Positions 26,040 to 40,370 of a stretch of 53,081 nt of DNA are shown here, one piece after another. Source of the DNA: Candidatus Hodarchaeota archaeon. GTDB lineage: Archaea > Asgardarchaeota > Heimdallarchaeia > Hodarchaeales > Hodarchaeaceae. The notes below the pieces were generated by a model, which had not been told where the DNA came from, ran no database searches, and saw nothing but the letters and a program-made list of their open reading frames with translations. The stretch spans positions 1 through 53,081 of the forward strand of contig JAEOTM010000198.1 of NCBI GenBank assembly GCA_016839815.1. Reading direction: 5' to 3'. How positions within the stretch are numbered: position 1 is the stretch's first letter; each line of letters opens with the position of its first letter. Position numbers and translations under genes: made by a program.

Positions 26040-27125
26040 CTAGTTTACGTCAATTATCCCGTCACTGGTGATGGCAAAGACGGTTTCGTTTTCTGGTAAA
26101 AGAGGGGAGTCGGCAATTCGTGCGATTCGTCGTTCACCCTTGGATTTGCGAAGGTAAACACGCGTCTGACTCGCATGAGCTACGATATGTCCACCAACAG
26201 GGGATGTTGGATCACCAAAGAACATATCTGGCTTAGAATGGACTTGATTAGTAAGAATGACGGCCATATTTCCAACCTCAGCCATTTTGAGCAGAGTGTG
26301 AATATGTTGATTTAATTTCTGTTGTCTACTCGCAAGCGTTCCTCGGCCAATATATTCTGCACGGAAATGAGCAATTAAAGAATCAACTACAACTAATCCA
26401 ATAGGCTCGGATTGACTAGCTTGGGCAGCTTTTTCCGCTAGAACCATTTGATGATCGCTATTGTAAGCACGACCGTGCATGATATTCTTCAAAACTTCCT
26501 TCACGTCTAAATCTCCTTCCCATCTTTTGGTCATATTCAATATTCGTTCGGGACGAAAAGTACCCTCCGTATCAATATAAATTACTTTGATAGGCCCATC
26601 AACGCGTAATCCTCCCAGCTCACGTGGTAATTGAGCTGCAACACATAATTGGTGAGCTAATTGAGTTTTTCCTGTCCGATATTCCCCATAAAGCTCAGTA
26701 ACTGCACCCGTTTCGATTCCACCACCAAAAAGGTCATCAAGTGATGCTGAACCGGTAGTGATCTTTAACATATTACGTCGACGTTCTAGTATTTCATCTG
26801 CAGAAACAAAACCGAAATCAAGTGCATCTCTTGCCGCTTGAATTATTTTACTAGAAGTAGCTTCTCCAAGGTTTCCTACTGCAACTAATTGGCCAATACT
26901 AACTGTTGCAAGAGATTCCAAAGTTCCAAAACCAGATTCTCTCAATTTTTTAGCAGTTGCTGGGCCGATTCCAGGTAAATCACCAATGTTTCCGGATGAT
27001 GTCTCTTTATTCGAACTTACATCAGGAACAGGAGATGGATCTTCTGACATCTTCACTTCCAACTCTCCTCCTTTCTCAACAGTAGTTTTATCATTATTGT
27101 TTGACTTTTTCTTACGAGGTGGCAT
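26040..27125 (-). CDS. radA: DNA repair and recombination protein RadA
   Basis: HhH (DLPGIGPATAKKL), FVSA polymerisation motif, GEYRTGKTQ, YIDTEGTFRPER, RGTLASRQQKL, GGHIVAH. Confidence 0.97.
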   Translation of the reverse strand: MPPRKKKSNNNDKTTVEKGGELEVKMSEDPSPVPDVSSNKETSSGNIGDLPGIGPATAKKLRESGFGTLESLATVSIGQLVAVGNLGEATSSKIIQAARDALDFGFVSADEILERRRNMLKITTGSASLDDLFGGGIETGAVTELYGEYRTGKTQLAHQLCVAAQLPRELGGLRVDGPIKVIYIDTEGTFRPERILNMTKRWEGDLDVKEVLKNIMHGRAYNSDHQMVLAEKAAQASQSEPIGLVVVDSLIAHFRAEYIGRGTLASRQQKLNQHIHTLLKMAEVGNMAVILTNQVHSKPDMFFGDPTSPVGGHIVAHASQTRVYLRKSKGERRIARIADSPLLPENETVFAITSDGIIDVN

Positions 27126-27928
27126 ACTGAATCACACTGTAAATTGATAAGTGAGTTAAGAGAATATGATTCATCCATCGTTTTAACTAAACAGAGCATA
27201 ATTTCCAAATGATTTTTTGTTTAGATGTAGTTCACTAATGTCTATTCCTAAAATTATCCAAAATTGGTCCTCTCTTTAAATGAGAAGCGCAATAAATAAT
27301 TATTATCTATTTATTTCACAATAAAAGTCATAATCAGGAGAATATCTCTAATTCTAGATTAAGTAATCGTTAACTGGTGAGTCTGGATTATCTTTGTCAT
27401 TTTCGATCTCCTCTCTCTTTCATCAGAATGGTTCAGAATTATCGCACAAATTCAGAAAGGATAGTTAAAATATTTCTTAATACCCATTCGAACAAGGAAA
27501 ATGCTAGGATCATTCACCTCTTACAGAAATCTAGAAACATAAATCTGTGTTTTCTTAGACTTAAAGTCATATTCAGTATACTCTCCAACAAGCAAACCAC
27601 TTGAATAAAAAATGTGAAAATGATCATTTTTTACACGTATATTCAATTCTATTCATTATTTCTAAAGATAAAATTCCAAGAATGATATTCCATATTTTTA
27701 CAAATTAAACAAGATGTAAAAAATCTATCTAGTTTTTCTCCTTGTGTTAAACAATACAAAACTAACCGTTGAATAGTGAAATATCATGACTCTTAAGTTA
27801 GATCAATATTGAACTTTGAAAATTGTGTCCTCAAGACTTTTTTACGAAGAGATCATTTGTTCACTTACTAGCGAATTAAAAGGTTACTTTCTATCTAGTC
27901 CCGACTCAAATCTGTTCGAGTTGAAATA

Positions 27929-29203
27929 ATGACAACACCAACAAACAATTATTCATTCTCTGATCTATTTGGTACTCATCAGTCAGTTTTTCGTGAGGAG
28001 GATATAAATCAAGGAGAAAAAGTATTTACATCATCTTATACTCCTCATTCCATCTGGCATAGAGAAGAAGAAATGAAAGCATTAGTTTCATATTTTAAAT
28101 CCATTATTACAAGTCCAACTACTTCTTCTAAGAAAGTTATCCTTTATGGGGCAGTGGGAACGGGAAAAACTGTGATTTCGCATGCATTTGGAAACGAATT
28201 AACTCAATTCTTAGCTAGAGCTCGTAATCATGGGGATCCGCGATTTAGGTACTTTCATATTAACTGTCGCAAGACAAAAACCCCCCATTTAATATTAACC
28301 ACGGTTCTACGGTATTTGGTGTCTGGATTTCCATTGAGGGGATTTAGTGTTGATGAATTGCTCCGGATGTTCACTCTTTTATTATATGAACAAAATTTAA
28401 CTGTTCTACTAACTCTTGATGAGATAGACTACCTTCTACCAGAAGAAAGAACTGACTTTCTATATTCGCTTTCAAGACTAGAAGAATCTCCAATATTGAG
28501 AGAGGAATATGGAGTCAAGGAGAGATTAGAGAGTCGTTTCAACCTCCTAACAATTACTCGAGATAAAAACTTCAGATTTTATTTAGATTCGTCCACTGCT
28601 TCTAGTCTCGGTAGAAATTACATTACATTCTCCCCATACACACGATATCAACTTTTTGATATCTTAGCGTCACGCGCTGAACTTGGTTTAAGAGAAGATT
28701 GTTATAACGATGAAATTTTAGATACAATTGCCAGTCTTGCTGAAGAGAAAGGGGATGCACGGTTTGCAATCGAACTATTATGGAAAAGTGCAAAGTTGAC
28801 AGATCAAGAAGGTGAAAGAAAAATCTCGTTGGAAACCGTAAGAAAAGCTATTGTTGATGTTTTACCAGTGGAAAGGTCTTTGATTGACGATTTAAATACA
28901 CATCAGAAGTTAATTTTGCTAAGTATTGCACGTTTACTTTCTACCTGTGAACAATCATCTATTACAACTCCTCAAGTGAAACAGGAATATCAAACCGTGT
29001 GTGAGGAAGCTTCTATTCGTCCTAGACGTCAAACACAAGTCTGGGCTTACCTGAGAGATTTGAATAGATTAGGATTAATTCAACAGCACGTTGAAAATCG
29101 TCACTTGAACGGAAAATCCATGGGACGGATCTCAACAATCAAAATTCGTGATATTCCAACAGAGGAGATAATATCATCTCTTAAACACTTATTAGTGGAA
29201 TAA
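27929..29203 (+). CDS. cdc6: Cdc6/Orc1 replication initiator
   Basis: SYTP...HREEE, GAVGTGKT, HINC, LDEID, FSPYT, GDAR and a C-terminal winged helix. Confidence 0.92.
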   Translation: MTTPTNNYSFSDLFGTHQSVFREEDINQGEKVFTSSYTPHSIWHREEEMKALVSYFKSIITSPTTSSKKVILYGAVGTGKTVISHAFGNELTQFLARARNHGDPRFRYFHINCRKTKTPHLILTTVLRYLVSGFPLRGFSVDELLRMFTLLLYEQNLTVLLTLDEIDYLLPEERTDFLYSLSRLEESPILREEYGVKERLESRFNLLTITRDKNFRFYLDSSTASSLGRNYITFSPYTRYQLFDILASRAELGLREDCYNDEILDTIASLAEEKGDARFAIELLWKSAKLTDQEGERKISLETVRKAIVDVLPVERSLIDDLNTHQKLILLSIARLLSTCEQSSITTPQVKQEYQTVCEEASIRPRRQTQVWAYLRDLNRLGLIQQHVENRHLNGKSMGRISTIKIRDIPTEEIISSLKHLLVE

Positions 29204-29209
29204 TTTGTC

Positions 29210-30241
29210 TTATATTCCTAAACCTAATGCAACGAATATCCAATCGACACCAAACCAAACAAATGCAGCAAGTAAAGCAGCAATTGGTACTGTAACTATC
29301 CATGATACAACTATCATTTTTACCATCTGTTTCTGAATAGGTGACTTTTCTGCCCAACCAACTGCAATCATTGCTGCAATTAGAACATGAGTTCCACTTA
29401 AGGGGAATCCTAGAACTGTACCTAATGTCATTATCAGAGTGACCGAAATCATTGAAGAAAGTCCAGAAGCTGGATTCATTTCAACAAGTTCTTTTGCTAC
29501 AACCTGAATTACAATTTTTCCTATTATTATTAGGCCTATGGCCATACCAAAACCGCCTAACAGCATCATTAACCATAAATTTGTTGTCGTAGTTTCACCT
29601 TCGAGTAATTTCAAGCCCAAAACTGGTGCAATAGAGTTTGCAACGTCATTTCCAGCTCTTGATGCAGAACTAATAATTAAGAAAAAACCCAAAGCATAAA
29701 TGTACACCTGATCTTTTTTCTGTTTACCTGCGAGTCCTTCGACTGACTCATCAAGACGATTGATCCATAAATGTACCGTAGCTGCAGCTATAAACCCAAT
29801 TACGGGGCTGAGAATCCAGCCCAAAAAAATTGAAAAAAGCACCCAGTAATCAACAGAACTTAATCCCCATTCTGGATTGGAAAAACCTGCTGCGATAGCA
29901 ACCCCTACAATTGCACCAACCACCGTTTGAGTAGTAGATATCGGTAGGGGCATAATTGTTACATGTCCCACAAGTATGATTATCATTACCAGCAAAACGG
30001 TAATCACCATTGCATCCGTCAACCTATTGCCTTTTACTAAATCTTCTCCTATAGTTTCTACAACAGCTTCTCCTAAAAATACCCCTAAAACTGAAAAAAT
30101 CGCCCCTAAGATCACTGCAGTTCGCAAAGTAAACACCCCTGCAGCCACTCCGGGAGCCATCATCTCGTCATTACTACCTGCAGCAAATGCAACTGCAAAA
30201 GCCATTAGGACAGCGAAAAGGAGAATCAATAAATCCGACAC
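29210..30241 (-). CDS. PiT family inorganic phosphate transporter
   Basis: GSNDE and AGNDVANS signatures, PISTTQ, PLSGTH, multi-TM. Confidence 0.9.
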   Translation of the reverse strand: MSDLLILLFAVLMAFAVAFAAGSNDEMMAPGVAAGVFTLRTAVILGAIFSVLGVFLGEAVVETIGEDLVKGNRLTDAMVITVLLVMIIILVGHVTIMPLPISTTQTVVGAIVGVAIAAGFSNPEWGLSSVDYWVLFSIFLGWILSPVIGFIAAATVHLWINRLDESVEGLAGKQKKDQVYIYALGFFLIISSASRAGNDVANSIAPVLGLKLLEGETTTTNLWLMMLLGGFGMAIGLIIIGKIVIQVVAKELVEMNPASGLSSMISVTLIMTLGTVLGFPLSGTHVLIAAMIAVGWAEKSPIQKQMVKMIVVSWIVTVPIAALLAAFVWFGVDWIFVALGLGI

Positions 30242-30264
30242 AATGAAACCTCAATTATAGAAAT

Positions 30265-30933
30265 TTAACCGTATTTTACGGTCATTGTTTGAATATAATC
30301 ACTTGTTTGCTCTGCTGCTTCGCTTACTTTAATAAGACTAACTGAAATCGTATATAAATACGCTGCGTCTTTTGGAGAATAGTCAGGTGAATGAATACGT
30401 CCGAAAATATGGAAATCTAAATCTCGTGCCTCTTCACGCATAGCATCAACTTTACCTGCGAAATTTCGAGCTTTATCATAATCTATATCCAAGTATTTGA
30501 GCGCATCTTGAAGATAATCGGTACAACGGTGTACTTTCTCTGCTAAAATAGGCATTTCATGGGGTATACGGGACGGAAAGTCTTGTTTCGAACATAATCG
30601 TCTAATTACAACTTCAGTTCGATTAACGATTGTGTCCATGTAGCGTACAAGTCGGTGACGATCTTCTGTAGCTTGGGGAAGATAAGCTCCTTTAGAGAAG
30701 ATACTATTAATTAATTCGTCTTTAATATCGTCACATCGTCTTTCAGTTTCAATGATTTCTTCTTGCAATTTAAGGATTTTTAGACGTGCCTCAGGATCTT
30801 GTTCATAATTGCACCATGTTATTACTGCTTTAGCTAGTTTTGCCGACGCTACCTGAAGTTCCTTTGCTAGTTGATCAAATAGTACTTCCCCCCGTTTAAA
30901 CAATTTTTTATCTCTTCTAAATAACAAGAACAC
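30265..30933 (-). CDS. DUF47 / PhoU-like phosphate transport regulator
   Basis: ERRCDDIK...EEARD helical repeat; immediately upstream of PiT, the usual pairing. Confidence 0.85.
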   Translation of the reverse strand: MFLLFRRDKKLFKRGEVLFDQLAKELQVASAKLAKAVITWCNYEQDPEARLKILKLQEEIIETERRCDDIKDELINSIFSKGAYLPQATEDRHRLVRYMDTIVNRTEVVIRRLCSKQDFPSRIPHEMPILAEKVHRCTDYLQDALKYLDIDYDKARNFAGKVDAMREEARDLDFHIFGRIHSPDYSPKDAAYLYTISVSLIKVSEAAEQTSDYIQTMTVKYG

Positions 30934-31117: not shown

Positions 31118-32083
31118 TTGTCAAAAGAAAAAGAATTCTTAGTTCAAGATTTAACGATTGATGATGAGTACGCTACAATTTCAGCCAATGCTTCAGTTCA
31201 AGAAGCAGCAAAAAAGATGAAAGAAAATGGAATTCCTGATTTAGTTGTCTTAGATGACGATAATATGTATCAGGGTGTCATTGCTGATTTTGATATTGTA
31301 ACTAATATGGTTGCTGAGGGTTTATCCTCTGAATCCAAGGTAACAGAGCTTATGTATACTATTGAGCCCGTAACAAAATCTACAACCGTTTCTGAGGCAT
31401 TTTCACGTATGCGAGATTTAGATGTTTCTATTGTTCCTGTTGTAGAAAATGATGAAGTAGTTGGAGTAGCTACAATAACTGACTGTTGGGGATACTTACC
31501 TGAAAAATATGAAGATTTAAAAGGACTGATTGCAGTATCTAATCCTCGCTTTGCAAACTACAGCTTCACTTTACTTATGTCTGTTCTTTACTTATTTTTC
31601 GGTATCTTTGCTCCTCTTATAGGAATAGTAGGCTATCTTAAAGCCCCAATTGCTAGCCAAGGTGGATTTACTGCTACCTATTACCTGTTTGAAGCTCGTG
31701 GGGCTAGTTTTTGGATGAGATTCATAGACATTCAAGGTCAATACGGAGCATTGTGGCTTCTATTGTCAGTTTATGGTGTCGCATTTATTGTTCTTAGTCT
31801 TGTAAGTGTTTATGCGATTTTCCAATGGGCATATGCTGATTATAAGATGATAAAGATAAATAAAAATTGGCAAGCGATTGGTGTGCTACTAGGTTTATTA
31901 AGTATTATAGTAGAGTGGTTATTGTTTATATCATTCGATTTTATGGACGTATTACGTGTTTCAAATGTTCAAATTGATTTCGGTGGATTTTTATTTTCAG
32001 TAATTGCCGTTATATGTCTTCTTGCAGCAGTTTCTCGCGATTACGTCTTTCGTGAGACAGCTGTCACAACAAAGGAGGAATAA
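31118..32083 (+). CDS. CBS-pair protein fused to a ~4-TM membrane domain
   Basis: Two CBS repeats (SVQEAAKKMKENGIPDLVV; TVSEAFSRMRDLDVSIVPVV) followed by hydrophobic helices. Confidence 0.8.
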   Translation: MSKEKEFLVQDLTIDDEYATISANASVQEAAKKMKENGIPDLVVLDDDNMYQGVIADFDIVTNMVAEGLSSESKVTELMYTIEPVTKSTTVSEAFSRMRDLDVSIVPVVENDEVVGVATITDCWGYLPEKYEDLKGLIAVSNPRFANYSFTLLMSVLYLFFGIFAPLIGIVGYLKAPIASQGGFTATYYLFEARGASFWMRFIDIQGQYGALWLLLSVYGVAFIVLSLVSVYAIFQWAYADYKMIKINKNWQAIGVLLGLLSIIVEWLLFISFDFMDVLRVSNVQIDFGGFLFSVIAVICLLAAVSRDYVFRETAVTTKEE

Positions 32084-32086
32084 AAA

Positions 32087-33775
32087 GTGCCCCGTGGTGG
32101 TGGTGGTGGATTTCGTGGAGGTGGAGGAGGTTTTCGCGGTGGTGGAGGATTTCGTGGAGGCGGCTTCCGAGGAGGAAGTCGAAGTTTCCGAGTAGGTTCA
32201 GTCAGAAGATCTGGACGTCCTTTCGGTAGGACAGGCTCTCGAAGAACGGTTTCTCGTGCTCCTCGATCTCGTCCAGGAAGAAATTACCATCGAAGACGTC
32301 ATCATCGATATTGGGGCGGTTATTATCGGCCTTGGTATCGACGTTGGTGGTATTGGAATTGGTGGTGGGGTTATCCCTACCGTAGATGGTATTATGCCCC
32401 AGTCTACTGGGGTGGTGGTGCAGTCTTAGGAATCATTGCCTTGTTAGTTATTCTCCCGCTGTTGAGTATGGCGTTTATCCCCTACCCATTAGCTAGTAGT
32501 GATGCAAATGGAACAGTCACTTACCAAGACACACAAACTATTTGGTATAATGAATACTGGTATGAACGAGAACCAATGAAACAAGGGCAAACTATAGATT
32601 ATAGAGTTGAAGCCATCCCAGGTCCAGTGACGTTTCTAATTTGGGATGAACCGTTTGAAAATTTACCTGAAAATCAAGTTCTCGAAGGAAGCTACGCTGA
32701 AAGTGACATGATAGTTGGCCCTGATCATGATTATGAGTACATTGGATACTTTCTAAAAATCGGTTCAACTCTTGAATATGAGTTTAACGTCACATCAGAA
32801 GAAGAAATTGAATTTTTCATTGCTGATGCCAATGAACTTGATCGGTGGAACAATTGGGAAACAATTAATTTTAGACAGTTTTATACTGGATCTGGAAGTT
32901 ACTCAAATGAATTTTCGGTCCCACACGCTGAAGATTGGTACCTTGTATGGTATAATCCGTCCTCCGAATCAATCAGCGTAGATTTTCAGATTGACTATAC
33001 ATCTGTAGGCAACATAAATGTAGCAGAAGCCGATGAAGTCAGAGAACATTTTACTGATCCACAATCGGATACTTTTCCAGTTCCACATGATGGGACGTGG
33101 TATTTCTTCATTTATATGAATCCTTTTGTCAATCCTGCAGAGTCTGTTGAAATCACCTTTGAGGTAAGTTACAACACAGAGGTCACCTATGAAGATCATT
33201 GGAGAGATGTAACACCGATATTAGTTGTCATCGGCCTTGTTGTTATCGTAATTCTCGTAATCGCGGTAATTCAACGAAGAAGTGCAAAGAAAAGTGTAAG
33301 TGCAACCCCAACGACATCTGGTACAACCACAACTCAACCGCCTGCAACTACTACCGCACAACCTCCTGCAAAGACTGTATGCCATAGGTGCAAAACGGAA
33401 TATAGACCTAGCGATGTTTTTTGCACCAATTGTGGAGCAAAACTTCATGGACGGGATTACGGTGCACCCAAAGTAAAGACTCCAGCTAATTCTAAATGGT
33501 GTAAGAACTGTAATGACACTTTAAAGGCCGATAGTCGTTTCTGTAAGAACTGTGGGACTCCAGTTGAACAAAAAATCGATACTCACAAGTTTTTCCCTGA
33601 TGAACGAAAAGCTTTCTTCTGTCAACTAGACAATGAACAACATCCTGCATCTGATTCCGCATACCAATGTGATCAATGTTCACGTATGGTTTGCGCAGAT
33701 TGCTATGATGATATTGGAAAAACTGGAATTCGGGTATGTCCCTATTGTAAGGGAAATCTAAGTAAAGTCCAATGA
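32087..33775 (+). CDS. Two-TM protein: RGG tail, GOLD-like beta-sandwiches, double Zn ribbon, RING-like finger
   Basis: (RGnF) repeats, TM1, acidic aromatic beta region, TM2, Thr/Pro linker, four CxxC pairs, and terminal CxxD-x12-CxxC-x4-CxxC-x11-CPxC. Confidence 0.75.
   Translation: MPRGGGGGFRGGGGGFRGGGGFRGGGFRGGSRSFRVGSVRRSGRPFGRTGSRRTVSRAPRSRPGRNYHRRRHHRYWGGYYRPWYRRWWYWNWWWGYPYRRWYYAPVYWGGGAVLGIIALLVILPLLSMAFIPYPLASSDANGTVTYQDTQTIWYNEYWYEREPMKQGQTIDYRVEAIPGPVTFLIWDEPFENLPENQVLEGSYAESDMIVGPDHDYEYIGYFLKIGSTLEYEFNVTSEEEIEFFIADANELDRWNNWETINFRQFYTGSGSYSNEFSVPHAEDWYLVWYNPSSESISVDFQIDYTSVGNINVAEADEVREHFTDPQSDTFPVPHDGTWYFFIYMNPFVNPAESVEITFEVSYNTEVTYEDHWRDVTPILVVIGLVVIVILVIAVIQRRSAKKSVSATPTTSGTTTTQPPATTTAQPPAKTVCHRCKTEYRPSDVFCTNCGAKLHGRDYGAPKVKTPANSKWCKNCNDTLKADSRFCKNCGTPVEQKIDTHKFFPDERKAFFCQLDNEQHPASDSAYQCDQCSRMVCADCYDDIGKTGIRVCPYCKGNLSKVQ
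32093..32176 (+). repeat. G-rich coding repeat encoding an RGG/GAR tract
   Basis: Encodes RG5F-RG5F-RG4F-RG3F-RG2 using mixed GGT/GGA/GGC codons. Confidence 0.85.
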
Positions 33776-36539: not shown

Positions 36540-37583
36540 GTGGCTAGCGTCGATTACGATTTTATAGAACTTGATATGGGACAGGGAGGAAAAAAAATGG
36601 ATATTCTCATTGATTTTATAACTAGTCGTATCAAAACTAAAAAAATTTCAGAAAAAGGGATTGGAGTAGAGTCGTTTGACGATGGAGCTATTATTCCCCT
36701 ACAGAACCAATCTATTGATCTGGTTCTTACAACTGATTCATACACAGTTACGCCGCTATTTTTTCGTGGAGGAAATATTGGAGATTTAGCTGCAAATGGA
36801 ACTATAAATGACCTACTTATGATGGGGGCTCGACCCATAGCTATAACACTCGCATTAGTGATAAGAGAGGGATTGAAGTTTGATGAATTAGCAAAAGTTG
36901 TGGAAACAATTGTAGACATTACTGAAAAATATAACATAGGTATAGTGGCTGGGGATACTAAAGTTATGCCGATTGGTTCAATGGATGAGGCAGGATTAAT
37001 AATTAATACAACAGGTTTAGGGGAAATTCCGATAGGAAAACGAATAACAGATAGTTCACTAGAACCAGATGATATTATTATTTCAACTGGAACACTTGGT
37101 GATCATGGTTTTGCAATGCTTGTTACAAGAGAAGGTATCGAATTAGAAACTGAAATTGAATCAGATGTTGCCCCTTTATTATCCTTAATAGAACCAATAT
37201 TAGATTTGCGAGTTCATGCAATGAAAGATCCAACTAGAGGTGGTTTAACAGGAGTACTAACGGATTGGGCTAAGAAATCAAATGTCTCAATATGGCTTGA
37301 TGAGGTGAATATCCCTATTTCAGAAGATGTGCGAATTGTAGCGGATATATTTGGGATTGATCCTTTACATGTTTCCTGTGAAGGTAAAGCGATAATTGGT
37401 GTCCATCCCGAAGATGCGGATCAGGTACTAAATTTATTAAAGGCTAATCCTCTTGGTAAACAAGCAGCTATCATAGGTCATGTGAAAGAATCACGAAAAG
37501 GACAGGTGCTATTAAAGACCGCTATTGGTGGCCATCGAATTTTAGATAAACCAGTTGGTGAACCAATTCCGCGAGTTTGTTAA
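36540..37583 (+). CDS. hypE: Hydrogenase maturation protein HypE
   Basis: TTDSY...PLFF, GTINDL, GDTKVM, MKDPTRGG, C-terminal PRVC. Confidence 0.95.
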   Translation: MASVDYDFIELDMGQGGKKMDILIDFITSRIKTKKISEKGIGVESFDDGAIIPLQNQSIDLVLTTDSYTVTPLFFRGGNIGDLAANGTINDLLMMGARPIAITLALVIREGLKFDELAKVVETIVDITEKYNIGIVAGDTKVMPIGSMDEAGLIINTTGLGEIPIGKRITDSSLEPDDIIISTGTLGDHGFAMLVTREGIELETEIESDVAPLLSLIEPILDLRVHAMKDPTRGGLTGVLTDWAKKSNVSIWLDEVNIPISEDVRIVADIFGIDPLHVSCEGKAIIGVHPEDADQVLNLLKANPLGKQAAIIGHVKESRKGQVLLKTAIGGHRILDKPVGEPIPRVC

Positions 37584-37837
37584 GATTCTTCCAACGAATT
37601 TTCATTCTCTTCCTCTGATTTCCAAAGCTCTTCCCAGAGTGCTAGGGTATCATGAGCTTCCTCTGGAGACATTATAGAGACCGCATACCCAGTGTGAATA
37701 AGAATCCAATCACCCTTGTTTAATTCCTCCCCCAATAAGGCTATACTTACCTCTCTTTTTACTCCACGACCAAAATCAGCAAGAATCATTTGATCCTCCA
37801 AAAATTCTTCAACTTGTGCGGGGATAGCTAAACACAT
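37580..37837 (-). CDS. hypC: Hydrogenase maturation chaperone HypC
   Basis: MCLAIPA start and GDWILIHTGYA. Confidence 0.95.
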   Translation of the reverse strand: MCLAIPAQVEEFLEDQMILADFGRGVKREVSIALLGEELNKGDWILIHTGYAVSIMSPEEAHDTLALWEELWKSEEENENSLEES

Positions 37838-37988
37838 AGGAAATAGTTCCATCCGAATAACTGACTAAGGCCTAGAAAAAAACTGAGAGTAAAAAATATT
37901 ATGGCTTTATCTTCAAAGAAAGATCGTTGAAGACCAAGTTTATTCATCCCGATACCAATAATTATATTCTCAATTTTGAGGTAAGTCT

Positions 37989-40370
37989 GTGTACTGTCAA
38001 ATACTAATCAATGGTGTAGTTCAAGGTATCGGGTTCCGACCATTCGTGTATAATCTAGCTCTAAAGCATAACTTAGTTGGTTTTGTTCTTAATAGAGGAG
38101 ATGCAGGAGTAGAGATTCAGATAAAGGGATCAGAAGCACAAATTCAAGCTTTTATTTATGACTTACAAAATAAAAAACCTACATTAGCTAGATATGAGAA
38201 TTTTCAACCTAATTTCAAGTTCAAGAATGTAAGCGAAACAAAATTTGATAGATTTAGAATTGCACAGAGCTCTTTATTACGAGGAAACGAAGGCTCTTAT
38301 ATACCACCAGATTTACCAATTTGTGAAAAATGCATTAATGAAATGGGATTTGATCCCCGTAGAAGGAATTATGCTTTCACATCATGTGTAGACTGTGGGC
38401 CTAGATATTCTGTAATCACTTCATTGCCTTATGATCGTCCTAGAACAGTGATGGAAGAGTTTCCATTATGTTCCAGGTGTTTAGAAGAATACACCACACC
38501 ATCTGATAGACGCTTCCATGCTCAAACAACATGTTGTTGGGATTGTGGGCCAAAGTATCGATTATATGACAATAAGGGAAATCTTGTACTCTCTCCTGAT
38601 AATTTCAAGGGAAATGAGGATTTACCCTCCAAACTCTTGAATGAAAATTCTATTATTGCAATTAAGGGGATTGGGGGAACACACATTGCATGCAGAACCA
38701 TGATAGATGAACCCATTATTAAAATACGGAATTGGAAAGGAGCGCGAGGTGATAAACCATTTGCTGTGATGGCTAAAAATCAAGAATCTGTGCAAAAATT
38801 CGCTTACTGCTCAGAAATCGAGAATGAATATCTTTCTTCTCATATACGACCAATTCTACTTCTCACAAAACAAGAGAAGTTTCCATTATCAAGATATATC
38901 TCACCTGATTTACATAATATCGGAGTTCTTTTTCCTTATGCAGGTATTCATGTTACATTATTTGAATGGATCACCGACCCTGCATTAGTCATGACTTCTG
39001 GTAATCCTTCTAATATGCCGATACTTATTAAGAATAGCCAGATACGAAGTAATCTATCTGAGATTGTTGATTACTATTTATTGCATGATAGGAAAATTTA
39101 TCAACGAATTGATGATAGTGTATTACGTCTACATGAAATTAACAAGCGTCCGCACCCCCTAATTATACGTAGAAGTAGAGGATATGTTCCTGAACCCATT
39201 TCTCTTCCATGGAAGGATTCAGTCTCAACAGTGATAGCTTTGGGTGCTGAAATGCATTCGGTTGGTGCTATTGGAATTGGTAGTAGAGTTTTCGCTACTC
39301 AGCACATCGGTCATCTCAGTACTCTCGAAAACATAGATTTTCTCAAATCCAGCTTAAAACACATGAAATCTTTACTAGGAATTGATAGGGTTGAGGGATT
39401 CGGAGGAGATTTACACCCGGAATTTTCTTCAACTAAGCTTGGTCAGGAGTGGGCTGATCGTTATAACATTCCATTTTACCAATTCCAGCATCATTTTTCT
39501 CATCTAAGTGCCCTAGCTATTGACGCTAGAGTCAATCCTGAAGAGACAATTCTATGCGCCGCGTTGGATGGAACGGGCTATGGGACAGATGGAACTATAT
39601 GGGGAGGAGAAATTTTGATGGGGAACTTCTCAGGTTATGAGAGAGTTGGCCATTTAGAAGTTTTAGCCATTCCTGGAGGAGATTTGGCAATTAATCAACC
39701 TCACCGCGCCCTTTTAGCATTTCTTCTCTCATTTATGACTCCCGAAGAAGTGACTCAAAGTATTCTGTCATTACCATGGTTAAATTGGATCACTGAATTA
39801 GATAACTATTCTATTTTACTAAAAACAATCGAAAATCAGAGTAGGAATCGGGATCTTACAACTCATAATCTTACATCCAGTTGTGGACGAGTTCTTGATA
39901 TTCTAAGTGTGATGCTAGGGGTAACAAAATTTCGTTCTTATGAAGGTGAACCCGCCATTAAACTCGAATCTTATGCTCTGAGAAAAAAGAATGAATCAAT
40001 ACCTACTATTCAGATTCCTTACAGTGAAAATAACAAAGGGTCCATTGAGATAAAGACAAAAATGCTTATTAGCAAAATATGGGAAGAAATGCAGAGTGGA
40101 GTGAATAGAAATATACTCGCCTTAGCATCGGAGAAGGCACTCGCAAATACGATTGCAGAAGTAACTCTTCTACTCGCTGAAAAGCATGGAATTAGCAAAA
40201 TCGGAATGTCTGGAGGAGTATGCTATAATCAAACCATTTATTCAGAATTCTACCACAAAATAATCAATGCGGGTAAGAATTTTACTCCAATATTTCATAA
40301 ACAGATTCCATGTGGAGACGGTTGTATATCGATCGGACAAGTACCCTTAATCCAAGCAAAATTACGTTGA
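37989..40370 (+). CDS. hypF: Carbamoyltransferase HypF
   Basis: GVVQGIGFRPF, Zn fingers, RRFHAQ, KGIGG, RRSRGY, QHHFSH, DGTGYG, GDGCISIGQ. Confidence 0.96.
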   Translation: MYCQILINGVVQGIGFRPFVYNLALKHNLVGFVLNRGDAGVEIQIKGSEAQIQAFIYDLQNKKPTLARYENFQPNFKFKNVSETKFDRFRIAQSSLLRGNEGSYIPPDLPICEKCINEMGFDPRRRNYAFTSCVDCGPRYSVITSLPYDRPRTVMEEFPLCSRCLEEYTTPSDRRFHAQTTCCWDCGPKYRLYDNKGNLVLSPDNFKGNEDLPSKLLNENSIIAIKGIGGTHIACRTMIDEPIIKIRNWKGARGDKPFAVMAKNQESVQKFAYCSEIENEYLSSHIRPILLLTKQEKFPLSRYISPDLHNIGVLFPYAGIHVTLFEWITDPALVMTSGNPSNMPILIKNSQIRSNLSEIVDYYLLHDRKIYQRIDDSVLRLHEINKRPHPLIIRRSRGYVPEPISLPWKDSVSTVIALGAEMHSVGAIGIGSRVFATQHIGHLSTLENIDFLKSSLKHMKSLLGIDRVEGFGGDLHPEFSSTKLGQEWADRYNIPFYQFQHHFSHLSALAIDARVNPEETILCAALDGTGYGTDGTIWGGEILMGNFSGYERVGHLEVLAIPGGDLAINQPHRALLAFLLSFMTPEEVTQSILSLPWLNWITELDNYSILLKTIENQSRNRDLTTHNLTSSCGRVLDILSVMLGVTKFRSYEGEPAIKLESYALRKKNESIPTIQIPYSENNKGSIEIKTKMLISKIWEEMQSGVNRNILALASEKALANTIAEVTLLLAEKHGISKIGMSGGVCYNQTIYSEFYHKIINAGKNFTPIFHKQIPCGDGCISIGQVPLIQAKLR

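Follow-up and report, generated by a model that had tools for sequence, protein, structure and literature searches.

The Hodarchaeales protein described here is a two-pass membrane protein whose outer domain, one GOLD domain inside another, is homologous to that of the eukaryotic APD1-4 proteins. This kinship is well supported and adds an apparently unreported membrane protein family common to eukaryotes and Asgard archaea. The literature has described APD proteins as plant-specific (PMC4036515), yet the nested double GOLD that forms their outer domain also occurs in amoebae, a mollusc, a stramenopile and two Asgard subfamilies, and even the Gly-rich N-terminus is shared. The protein ends in a RING-like finger that is, by its distribution, a mobile module of one archaeal family, recently added to the receptor. 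The evidence is about evenly balanced on whether a CBS-coupled two-pass receptor of this old Asgard-eukaryote family has thereby turned membrane RING E3 ligase in one Hodarchaeales lineage.

The gene and its neighborhood

The window is the whole stretch of DNA analyzed, 53,081 nucleotides long. ORF calling gives the main gene a GTG start (Table 1), and the 562-aa gene is confirmed as real. Its source is a Hodarchaeales genome. The genus is represented by 22 genomes, 19 of them with full-length copies, and one genome has a second, finger-less copy (G004:C11:894-2360, 43% identity) beside the finger-bearing one. The product has 227 homologs at E≤0.001, and its nearest named homologs are Hodarchaeales proteins of at most 67% identity. 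From the N-terminus it comprises a basic RGG/Arg-Trp-Tyr tail, a TM helix, the outer domain, a second TM helix, a double zinc ribbon and the RING-like finger. Promoter and terminator scans at the locus were at chance level, and a sequencing-run search listed no RNA run with the gene.

Table 1. Positions in the window of the main gene, its parts and its upstream partner.
Feature	Position	Strand	Size or evidence
CBS domain pair and about 4 TM helices, 321 aa, stop 3 nt before main gene	31118..32083	+	PF00571 E 1.3e-16
Shine-Dalgarno-like GGAGG, within 3' end of CBS gene, 8 nt 5' of GTG	32074..32078	+	sequence
Main gene, two-pass membrane protein, APD-like nested-GOLD family	32087..33775	+	562 aa
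Cytoplasmic N-tail, aa 1-105: MPRGGG start, 5 RGG, then Arg/Trp/Tyr/His-rich	32087..32401	+	sequence
TM1, aa 113-131	32423..32479	+	hydropathy 2.88
Outer GOLD domain, N-terminal half, aa about 141-191	32507..32659	+	structure model; hhalign vs inner domain
Inner GOLD domain, aa about 197-309	32675..33013	+	p24beta1 GOLD Z 12.6; PF16040 E 0.004
Outer GOLD domain, C-terminal half, aa about 315-365	33029..33181	+	model; 1o6u; hhalign
TM2, aa 377-395, then basic residues and Thr/Pro linker	33215..33271	+	hydropathy 3.56
Double zinc ribbon, aa 432-490	33380..33556	+	PF12773 E 1.5e-8, over cut-off
RING-like finger, aa 508-561, Hodarchaeales-restricted mobile module	33608..33769	+	sequence, profile, model

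The CBS gene lies directly upstream in all 36 full-length loci, 19 of them Hodarchaeales and 17 Lokiarchaeia-type, and a stand-alone CBS gene precedes three of the five loci of a second Asgard subfamily. Since the CBS gene is also upstream in the Lokiarchaeia-type loci, which lack the finger, the CBS link is older than the finger. The ancestral unit was most likely a CBS-coupled two-pass receptor, with a GOLD pair that bound outside and with signalling via the zinc ribbons. The conserved CBS partner is a first functional clue to the APD-like family.

Positions 26040-30933 of the window hold a RadA-like gene (26040-27125), Cdc6/Orc1 (27929-29203) and a DUF47-PiT phosphate transporter pair that is divergent from the CBS gene. 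Cdc6 remains nearby in four of five other Hodarchaeales loci. A tie to the PiT/DUF47 genes was rejected as a general feature, as it is seen in two of five other Hodarchaeales loci and in no Lokiarchaeia-type locus; these genes lie once beside a distant paralog. HypE-, HypC- and HypF-like hydrogenase maturation genes, named by sequence only, are at 36540-40370.

Membrane topology and tails

Hydropathy gives two TM helices. The N-terminal tail has 26 K/R and no D/E, residues 132-374 have 8 K/R and 47 D/E, and basic residues directly follow TM2. The basic N-tail, the acidic region between the helices and the basic residues after TM2 place both tails inside, in the cytoplasm, and the charge pattern is the same in 111 homologs. 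The sequon density per Asn is equal inside and outside and carries no information on topology. An earlier, sequence-only reading of this DNA had described two helices with both tails on one side and an acidic β region of about 240 aa on the other, and both descriptions hold.

The C-terminal cytoplasmic tail is 165 aa long and zinc-binding by its predicted domains, and the double zinc ribbon is found in all full-length members of the subfamily. The RGG/Arg-aromatic N-tail is kept across the family, and its Gly-rich start is common to the eukaryotic homologs. Many eukaryotic members open with the same Gly-rich tail ahead of TM1; the tail is often Gly/His-rich, without RGG repeats.

The nested GOLD domains

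The model of the outer domain, built from 89 sequences, has a pLDDT of 95 and is nearly all β. The best solved match of residues 197-309 is the GOLD domain of p24beta1 (Z 12.6, rmsd 1.7 over 89 aa). The flanking halves match the 1o6u GOLD across the insertion (Z 11.9, model residues 9-235). When the two halves are joined, they are homologous to the inner domain (hhalign 96.8%, E 2e-10), and the structure is therefore one GOLD domain nested in another. Birnavirus capsids, the top Foldseek matches of the outer domain, were dismissed at an rmsd of over 15.

The p24 match and the family-wide conservation of the RGG/Arg-aromatic tail would suit a protein whose main job is p24-like cargo sorting, or RNA or ribosome tethering by the RGG tail and zinc ribbons, with the finger nearly neutral. 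This is improbable. The protein has two TM helices and neither the coiled coil nor the short sorting tail of p24 proteins, and the eukaryotic tails often lack RGG repeats. Mean column identity of the finger among orthologs is 77%, and such high conservation argues against neutrality.

Relationship to the APD proteins

Outside the protein's own cluster, the Atlas models closest to it come from two streptophyte APD1-4 clusters (TM 0.53, model residues 13-220). A sequence profile was searched against 1.84 billion proteins. Its eukaryotic matches include a Brassica APD (E 6e-6) and proteins of Pellita, Planopodium, Cochliopodium, Haliotis and Chrysoparadoxa; those scanned have APD1-4_N and/or APD1-4_M over the cut-off. 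In the Pfam scan the query is below the cut-off of APD1-4_N (PF16040; 17.2 bits vs 27, E 0.004), and APD1-4_M (PF16041) is absent from its matches at E≤1. Several Lokiarchaeia-type orthologs pass the APD1-4_N cut-off at 28.4-29.1 bits, so that homology to APD1-4 stands at the family level. The second Asgard subfamily, which includes HeimC2_37210 of LC_2, passes the APD cut-offs, with 27.0 bits vs 25 for APD1-4_M (P0244). It is homologous to the query's subfamily (hhalign 99.1%, E 1e-18), nearer to the eukaryotic proteins, and RING-less, its C-terminus being zinc ribbons only.

In an unrooted tree of 81 outer domains (LG+C20 PMSF), a branch with 100/100 support has the query's subfamily on one side and the eukaryotes with the second Asgard subfamily on the other. 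A number of eukaryotic branches are long, likeness alone is the ground for calling some rows eukaryotic, and the branching order within the eukaryote and second-subfamily group is unresolved. Because the eukaryotes group with the other, RING-less subfamily, the query is an out-paralog of the APD-like line and not its direct ortholog.

The sequence-only reading had likened the whole protein to the plant APD1-4 ligases. The likeness stands for the outer domain, in its GOLD fold and its homology at the family level, and falls for the layout as a whole, whose match to plant APD is not inherited. The like domain order and the homologous outer domain had made plausible a direct archaeal ortholog of plant APD1-4, with the entire TM-GOLD-TM-RING layout from an Asgard ancestor. 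This is now largely refuted and very improbable: besides the 100/100 grouping, the finger is nearly confined to one archaeal family, most orthologs lack it, and the amoeba and mollusc members examined are RING-less. Nor was an APD-type RING-HC found, the query finger having no His at ligand 4; PF13920 (zf-C3HC4_3) is neither among the query's listed matches nor in the 25 most frequent families across 50 finger copies.

Two single-GOLD, two-TM relatives from Ca. Heimdallarchaeota, P0216 and P0236 (L138:5001-6125), have a similar Gly/Arg-rich tail and zinc ribbon pair. Their RING-H2, which has Trp and Arg, was fused independently within the APD-like family. The RING-less eukaryotic members P0254, P0256 and P0284 (L136) have a Pro-rich C-terminal tail containing PPxY, a motif that could recruit NEDD4-type ligases. 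The P0254 gene is intronless and adjoins a tandem paralog.

We found no paper on an archaeal APD-like protein, in a search that most subscription papers lay outside, and none mentioning PF16040 or Asgard together with "GOLD domain". The main text of an Asgard structural-modelling paper has no APD, GOLD or p24.

Ligands and fold of the finger

The finger ligands, C512-x2-D515-x12-C528-x2-C531-x4-C536-x2-C539-x11-C551-x2-C554, are seven Cys and one Asp in RING order, followed by K555; the C4C4 motif quoted earlier is thus present, with its basic residue after CPxC. The motif is not due to chance, since the protein has 227 homologs and six of the eight ligands are invariant Cys in 172 finger copies. 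Variation is limited to ligand 2 (Cys, Asp or His) or ligand 6 (Cys, Ser, Asp or His). The Asp at ligand 2 had been read correctly as a replacement, paralogous fingers carrying Cys or His there. Non-Cys residues at ligands 2 and 6 never occur together (7, 4 and 0 of 23 clusters), an exclusion that would fit a cross-brace and is not significant (p about 0.2).

The spacing had been called Not4-type, which proved wrong. Not4 fingers have C3-x-C4, whereas the query has C3-x2-C4, and zf-RING_4 (PF14570) reaches 20.1 bits against a cut-off of 27. The query equals the cellulose synthase RING over ligands 3-8, and zf-UDP is a weak match (E 0.007, Pfam scan). The C3-x2-C4-x4 register is also found in eight RING-H2-type proteins of the same genome, and the finger aligns with the genome's own RING-H2 proteins over all eight ligands (hhalign 56%, E 1e-4). 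No RING family in Pfam passes its cut-off on the finger.

The candidate E2-contact residues are L514, I543, P552 and Y553, with K555 as the linchpin. The aromatic residue pointed out directly after ligand 6 is present in the motif, but the usual E2-contact position is four residues after that ligand, where the query has Ile (I543) for the usual Trp. In the query's 42-copy finger group, Leu before ligand 2 and Pro after ligand 7 are invariant, and Lys follows ligand 8 in 38 copies. In paralogous fingers the linchpin is mostly Gly, Asp or Ser. In the biochemically tested RING E3 of Caldiarchaeum the C3/H4 register is also shifted, and I30, W58 and R69 are required (PMC5654768); L514, I543 and K555 would be their counterparts by our own mapping.

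Among structural matches of the finger model (pLDDT 89), ribosomal aS34 ranks first (Z 7.5), with ZZ and RING tied at Z 5.0-5.6. RING domains of E3s are matched at Z 5.0-5.4, and the Foldseek rows are mostly RING E3s (best E 0.02, none under 0.001). The RING-type cross-brace proposed earlier has support in the model quality and the RING matches; aS34 ranks higher and ZZ ties, and the fold search does not part RING from either. ZZ domains have an acidic N-degron pocket (Asp) and terminal His ligands; the finger has a CPxC end, no Asp between ligands 4 and 5 and no terminal His ligands. An Atlas feature search of the finger returned unnamed clusters only, under 0.9.

Distribution of the finger

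The finger is present in 33 of the 120 closest homologs, all of Hodarchaeales type, and absent from about 85; the Lokiarchaeia-type orthologs and the LC_3 copy lack it. Its profile has 5-15 matches per genome in all eight genomes of the query's family and one match each in two of 143 other Asgard genomes. In this genome and its relatives the finger occurs as a fusion on PCI/winged-helix, LRR, WD40-TM, PKD-TM-Mrr and dCache-TM-HAMP proteins, and some paralogous fingers occur twice per protein or before an Mrr nuclease. Examples from this genome are a 1892-aa PKD-TM-finger-Mrr nuclease protein (L029:2-5677), a WD40-TM-finger protein (L032:2460-4796) and a finger-LRR protein (L027:3839-5353). P0300 (L020:1501-3138, minus strand) is a dCache_1-TM-HAMP-zinc ribbon protein whose C-terminal finger is 70% identical to the query's. 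Its layout is that of a chemoreceptor, with a RING-like output where a kinase or MCP domain would sit.

The finger could be a non-catalytic dimerization or protein-binding module, like the cellulose synthase RING, TFIIH p44, aS34 or ZZ, and the protein a CBS-coupled receptor or substrate adaptor, tied to ubiquitin/ESCRT or to others, that is not an E3. We hold this to be a serious possibility, short of probable. The cellulose synthase and p44 fingers are mainly interaction modules, and both share the query's spacing. These fingers, the top rank of aS34 and the level standing of ZZ, the lack of a basic linchpin in most paralogous fingers and the doubled or Mrr-linked copies speak for a binding module, and the family functions without the finger in most lineages. 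Most of this also counts against a ligase, as do the failure of every Pfam RING cut-off, the absence of the usual Trp and the many finger-less homologs, although Lokiarchaeia-type genomes encode E2s. On the other side, Lys555 and the hydrophobic E2 positions persist in the query's group, the finger has a CPxC end and neither the Asp pocket nor the terminal His ligands of ZZ, and paralogs are located in ubiquitin loci.

The ubiquitin system of the genome

The ubiquitin, E1 and E2 that the sequence-only reading had wished to see checked are present. Four UQ_con matches of the genome pass the cut-off, namely three full E2s and one UEV-like protein; it also has two ubiquitins, five E1-like genes and six zf-RING_2 matches. 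Neither a lack of E2 and ubiquitin, nor a lack of APD/GOLD similarity, nor a C-terminus folded as zinc ribbons without a cross-brace was found. The ubiquitin-system genes are mostly clustered, on contigs C135, C7, C122 and C189. The C135 E2 keeps the YPF, catalytic Cys and SPA motifs, and one of the RING-H2 proteins sits in a Ub/E1/E2 cluster. No ubiquitin genes were found near the main gene at its locus, which argues against a ligase. A two-finger PCI-like paralog lies within the C122 locus, between E1/ubiquitin-like/E2/JAB and SPFH/EAP30 genes.

The C122 locus (L052, G000:C122:11693-21800) holds two small GTPases, a JAB-like gene, E2, a ubiquitin-like gene and E1, then the two-finger protein, SPFH and EAP30/Vps36; the last three genes are duplicated on contig C181 (L028). 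The C135 locus (L053, G000:C135:24284-37640) has a UEV-like protein, a possible Vps28-like gene, small GTPases, E1, ubiquitin, a 70-aa RING and the conserved E2. In the ubiquitin-E1-E2 cluster of contig C7 lies a 370-aa protein with about six TM helices, a C-terminal RING-H2-like motif and no Pfam match (L054:7010-8119, plus strand; G000:C7:16009-17121), which by gene context is a stronger membrane-E3 candidate. Two small proteins (G000:C134:34728-35288 and 39436-39891) have an N-terminal RING-H2-type domain and a C-terminal TM helix.

Proposed role

The ligase reading is supported by the match of the finger model to E3 RINGs and by the eight-ligand alignment with the genome's RING-H2 proteins. 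It is also supported by paralogous fingers in the Ub-E1-E2-JAB-SPFH-EAP30 locus and at the cytoplasmic ends of receptors, including the dCache-HAMP protein. Repeated ubiquitin ties of the APD-like family add support: RING-HC in plants, RING-H2 on the single-GOLD Heimdallarchaeia relatives, PPxY in some eukaryotic tails, and the query finger.

As a ligase, the protein would work as follows. The GOLD pair, like the GOLD domains of p24 proteins, would bind either a ligand on the outside or a membrane client by its outer part, and a complex with the CBS-4TM protein would let the adenine-nucleotide state tune it. That the finger recruits E2-ubiquitin we judge as plausible as the opposite; it would bind the charged E2 via L514, I543, P552/Y553 and K555, and it may tag partner proteins. 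Ubiquitin would pass to the client, the CBS partner or the protein's own Lys-rich tail, and marked membrane proteins would enter a UEV/ESCRT or proteasome route. Where the finger is missing, in Lokiarchaeia and in the RING-less ancestors, the receptor would have to rely on an E3 in trans or on a different output.

Asgard archaea carry genes for ubiquitin and ESCRT. A broader and rather speculative proposal is that Hodarchaeales receptors use ubiquitin as an output, one mobile RING-like module on GOLD, dCache-HAMP, WD40 and other ectodomains making ligand- or energy-gated membrane E3s that feed ESCRT, and that eukaryotes inherited the APD-like receptor family from Asgard archaea. If true, this would parallel eukaryotic receptor down-regulation. 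A 60-residue finger, E2s and a defined partner, all from one genome, make the question of which membrane ligases and cargo would use the Asgard ubiquitin and ESCRT genes testable in vitro.

Comparison with known systems

Arabidopsis APD1-4 are described as membrane RING-HC E3 ligases with PF16040, PF16041 and PF13920 (Luo et al. 2012, cited in PMC6118397, PMC4036515). Like them, the query has two TM helices flanking a homologous outer domain and a cytoplasmic C-terminal RING-type finger. It differs in its double zinc ribbon and RGG tail, both Pfam APD domains fall below the cut-off, and its finger is an Asp-variant C4C4 of separate, recent origin, not a RING-HC.

The srfp of Ca. Caldiarchaeum subterraneum and the Asgard RING-H2 proteins share with the query the shifted ligand 3/4 register, hydrophobic E2-contact positions, a basic linchpin and cognate E1, E2 and ubiquitin in the genome (PMC5654768). 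Encoded in an operon, srfp is a small soluble protein that has His at ligands 5 and 6 and the Trp (PMC5654768). The query has Cys at both of those ligands, Asp at ligand 2 and Ile in place of Trp, and its finger is fused to a membrane receptor away from ubiquitin genes.

The p24/TMED cargo receptors have a like GOLD fold outside the membrane. Theirs is a type I layout of one GOLD, a coiled coil, one TM helix and a short sorting tail, in contrast to the query's two nested GOLD domains, two TM helices, no coiled coil and a long zinc-binding tail.

The C4C4 fingers of cellulose synthase (zf-UDP), TFIIH p44/Ssl1, Not4 and aS34 (PMC11698992) are likewise eight-ligand binuclear fingers, and zf-UDP shares the C-x2-C-x4-C-x2-C core. 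All of these matches are below cut-offs, being weak in sequence or fold, and in Not4 a single residue separates ligands 3 and 4. The query finger lies behind a GOLD ectodomain, unlike any of these.
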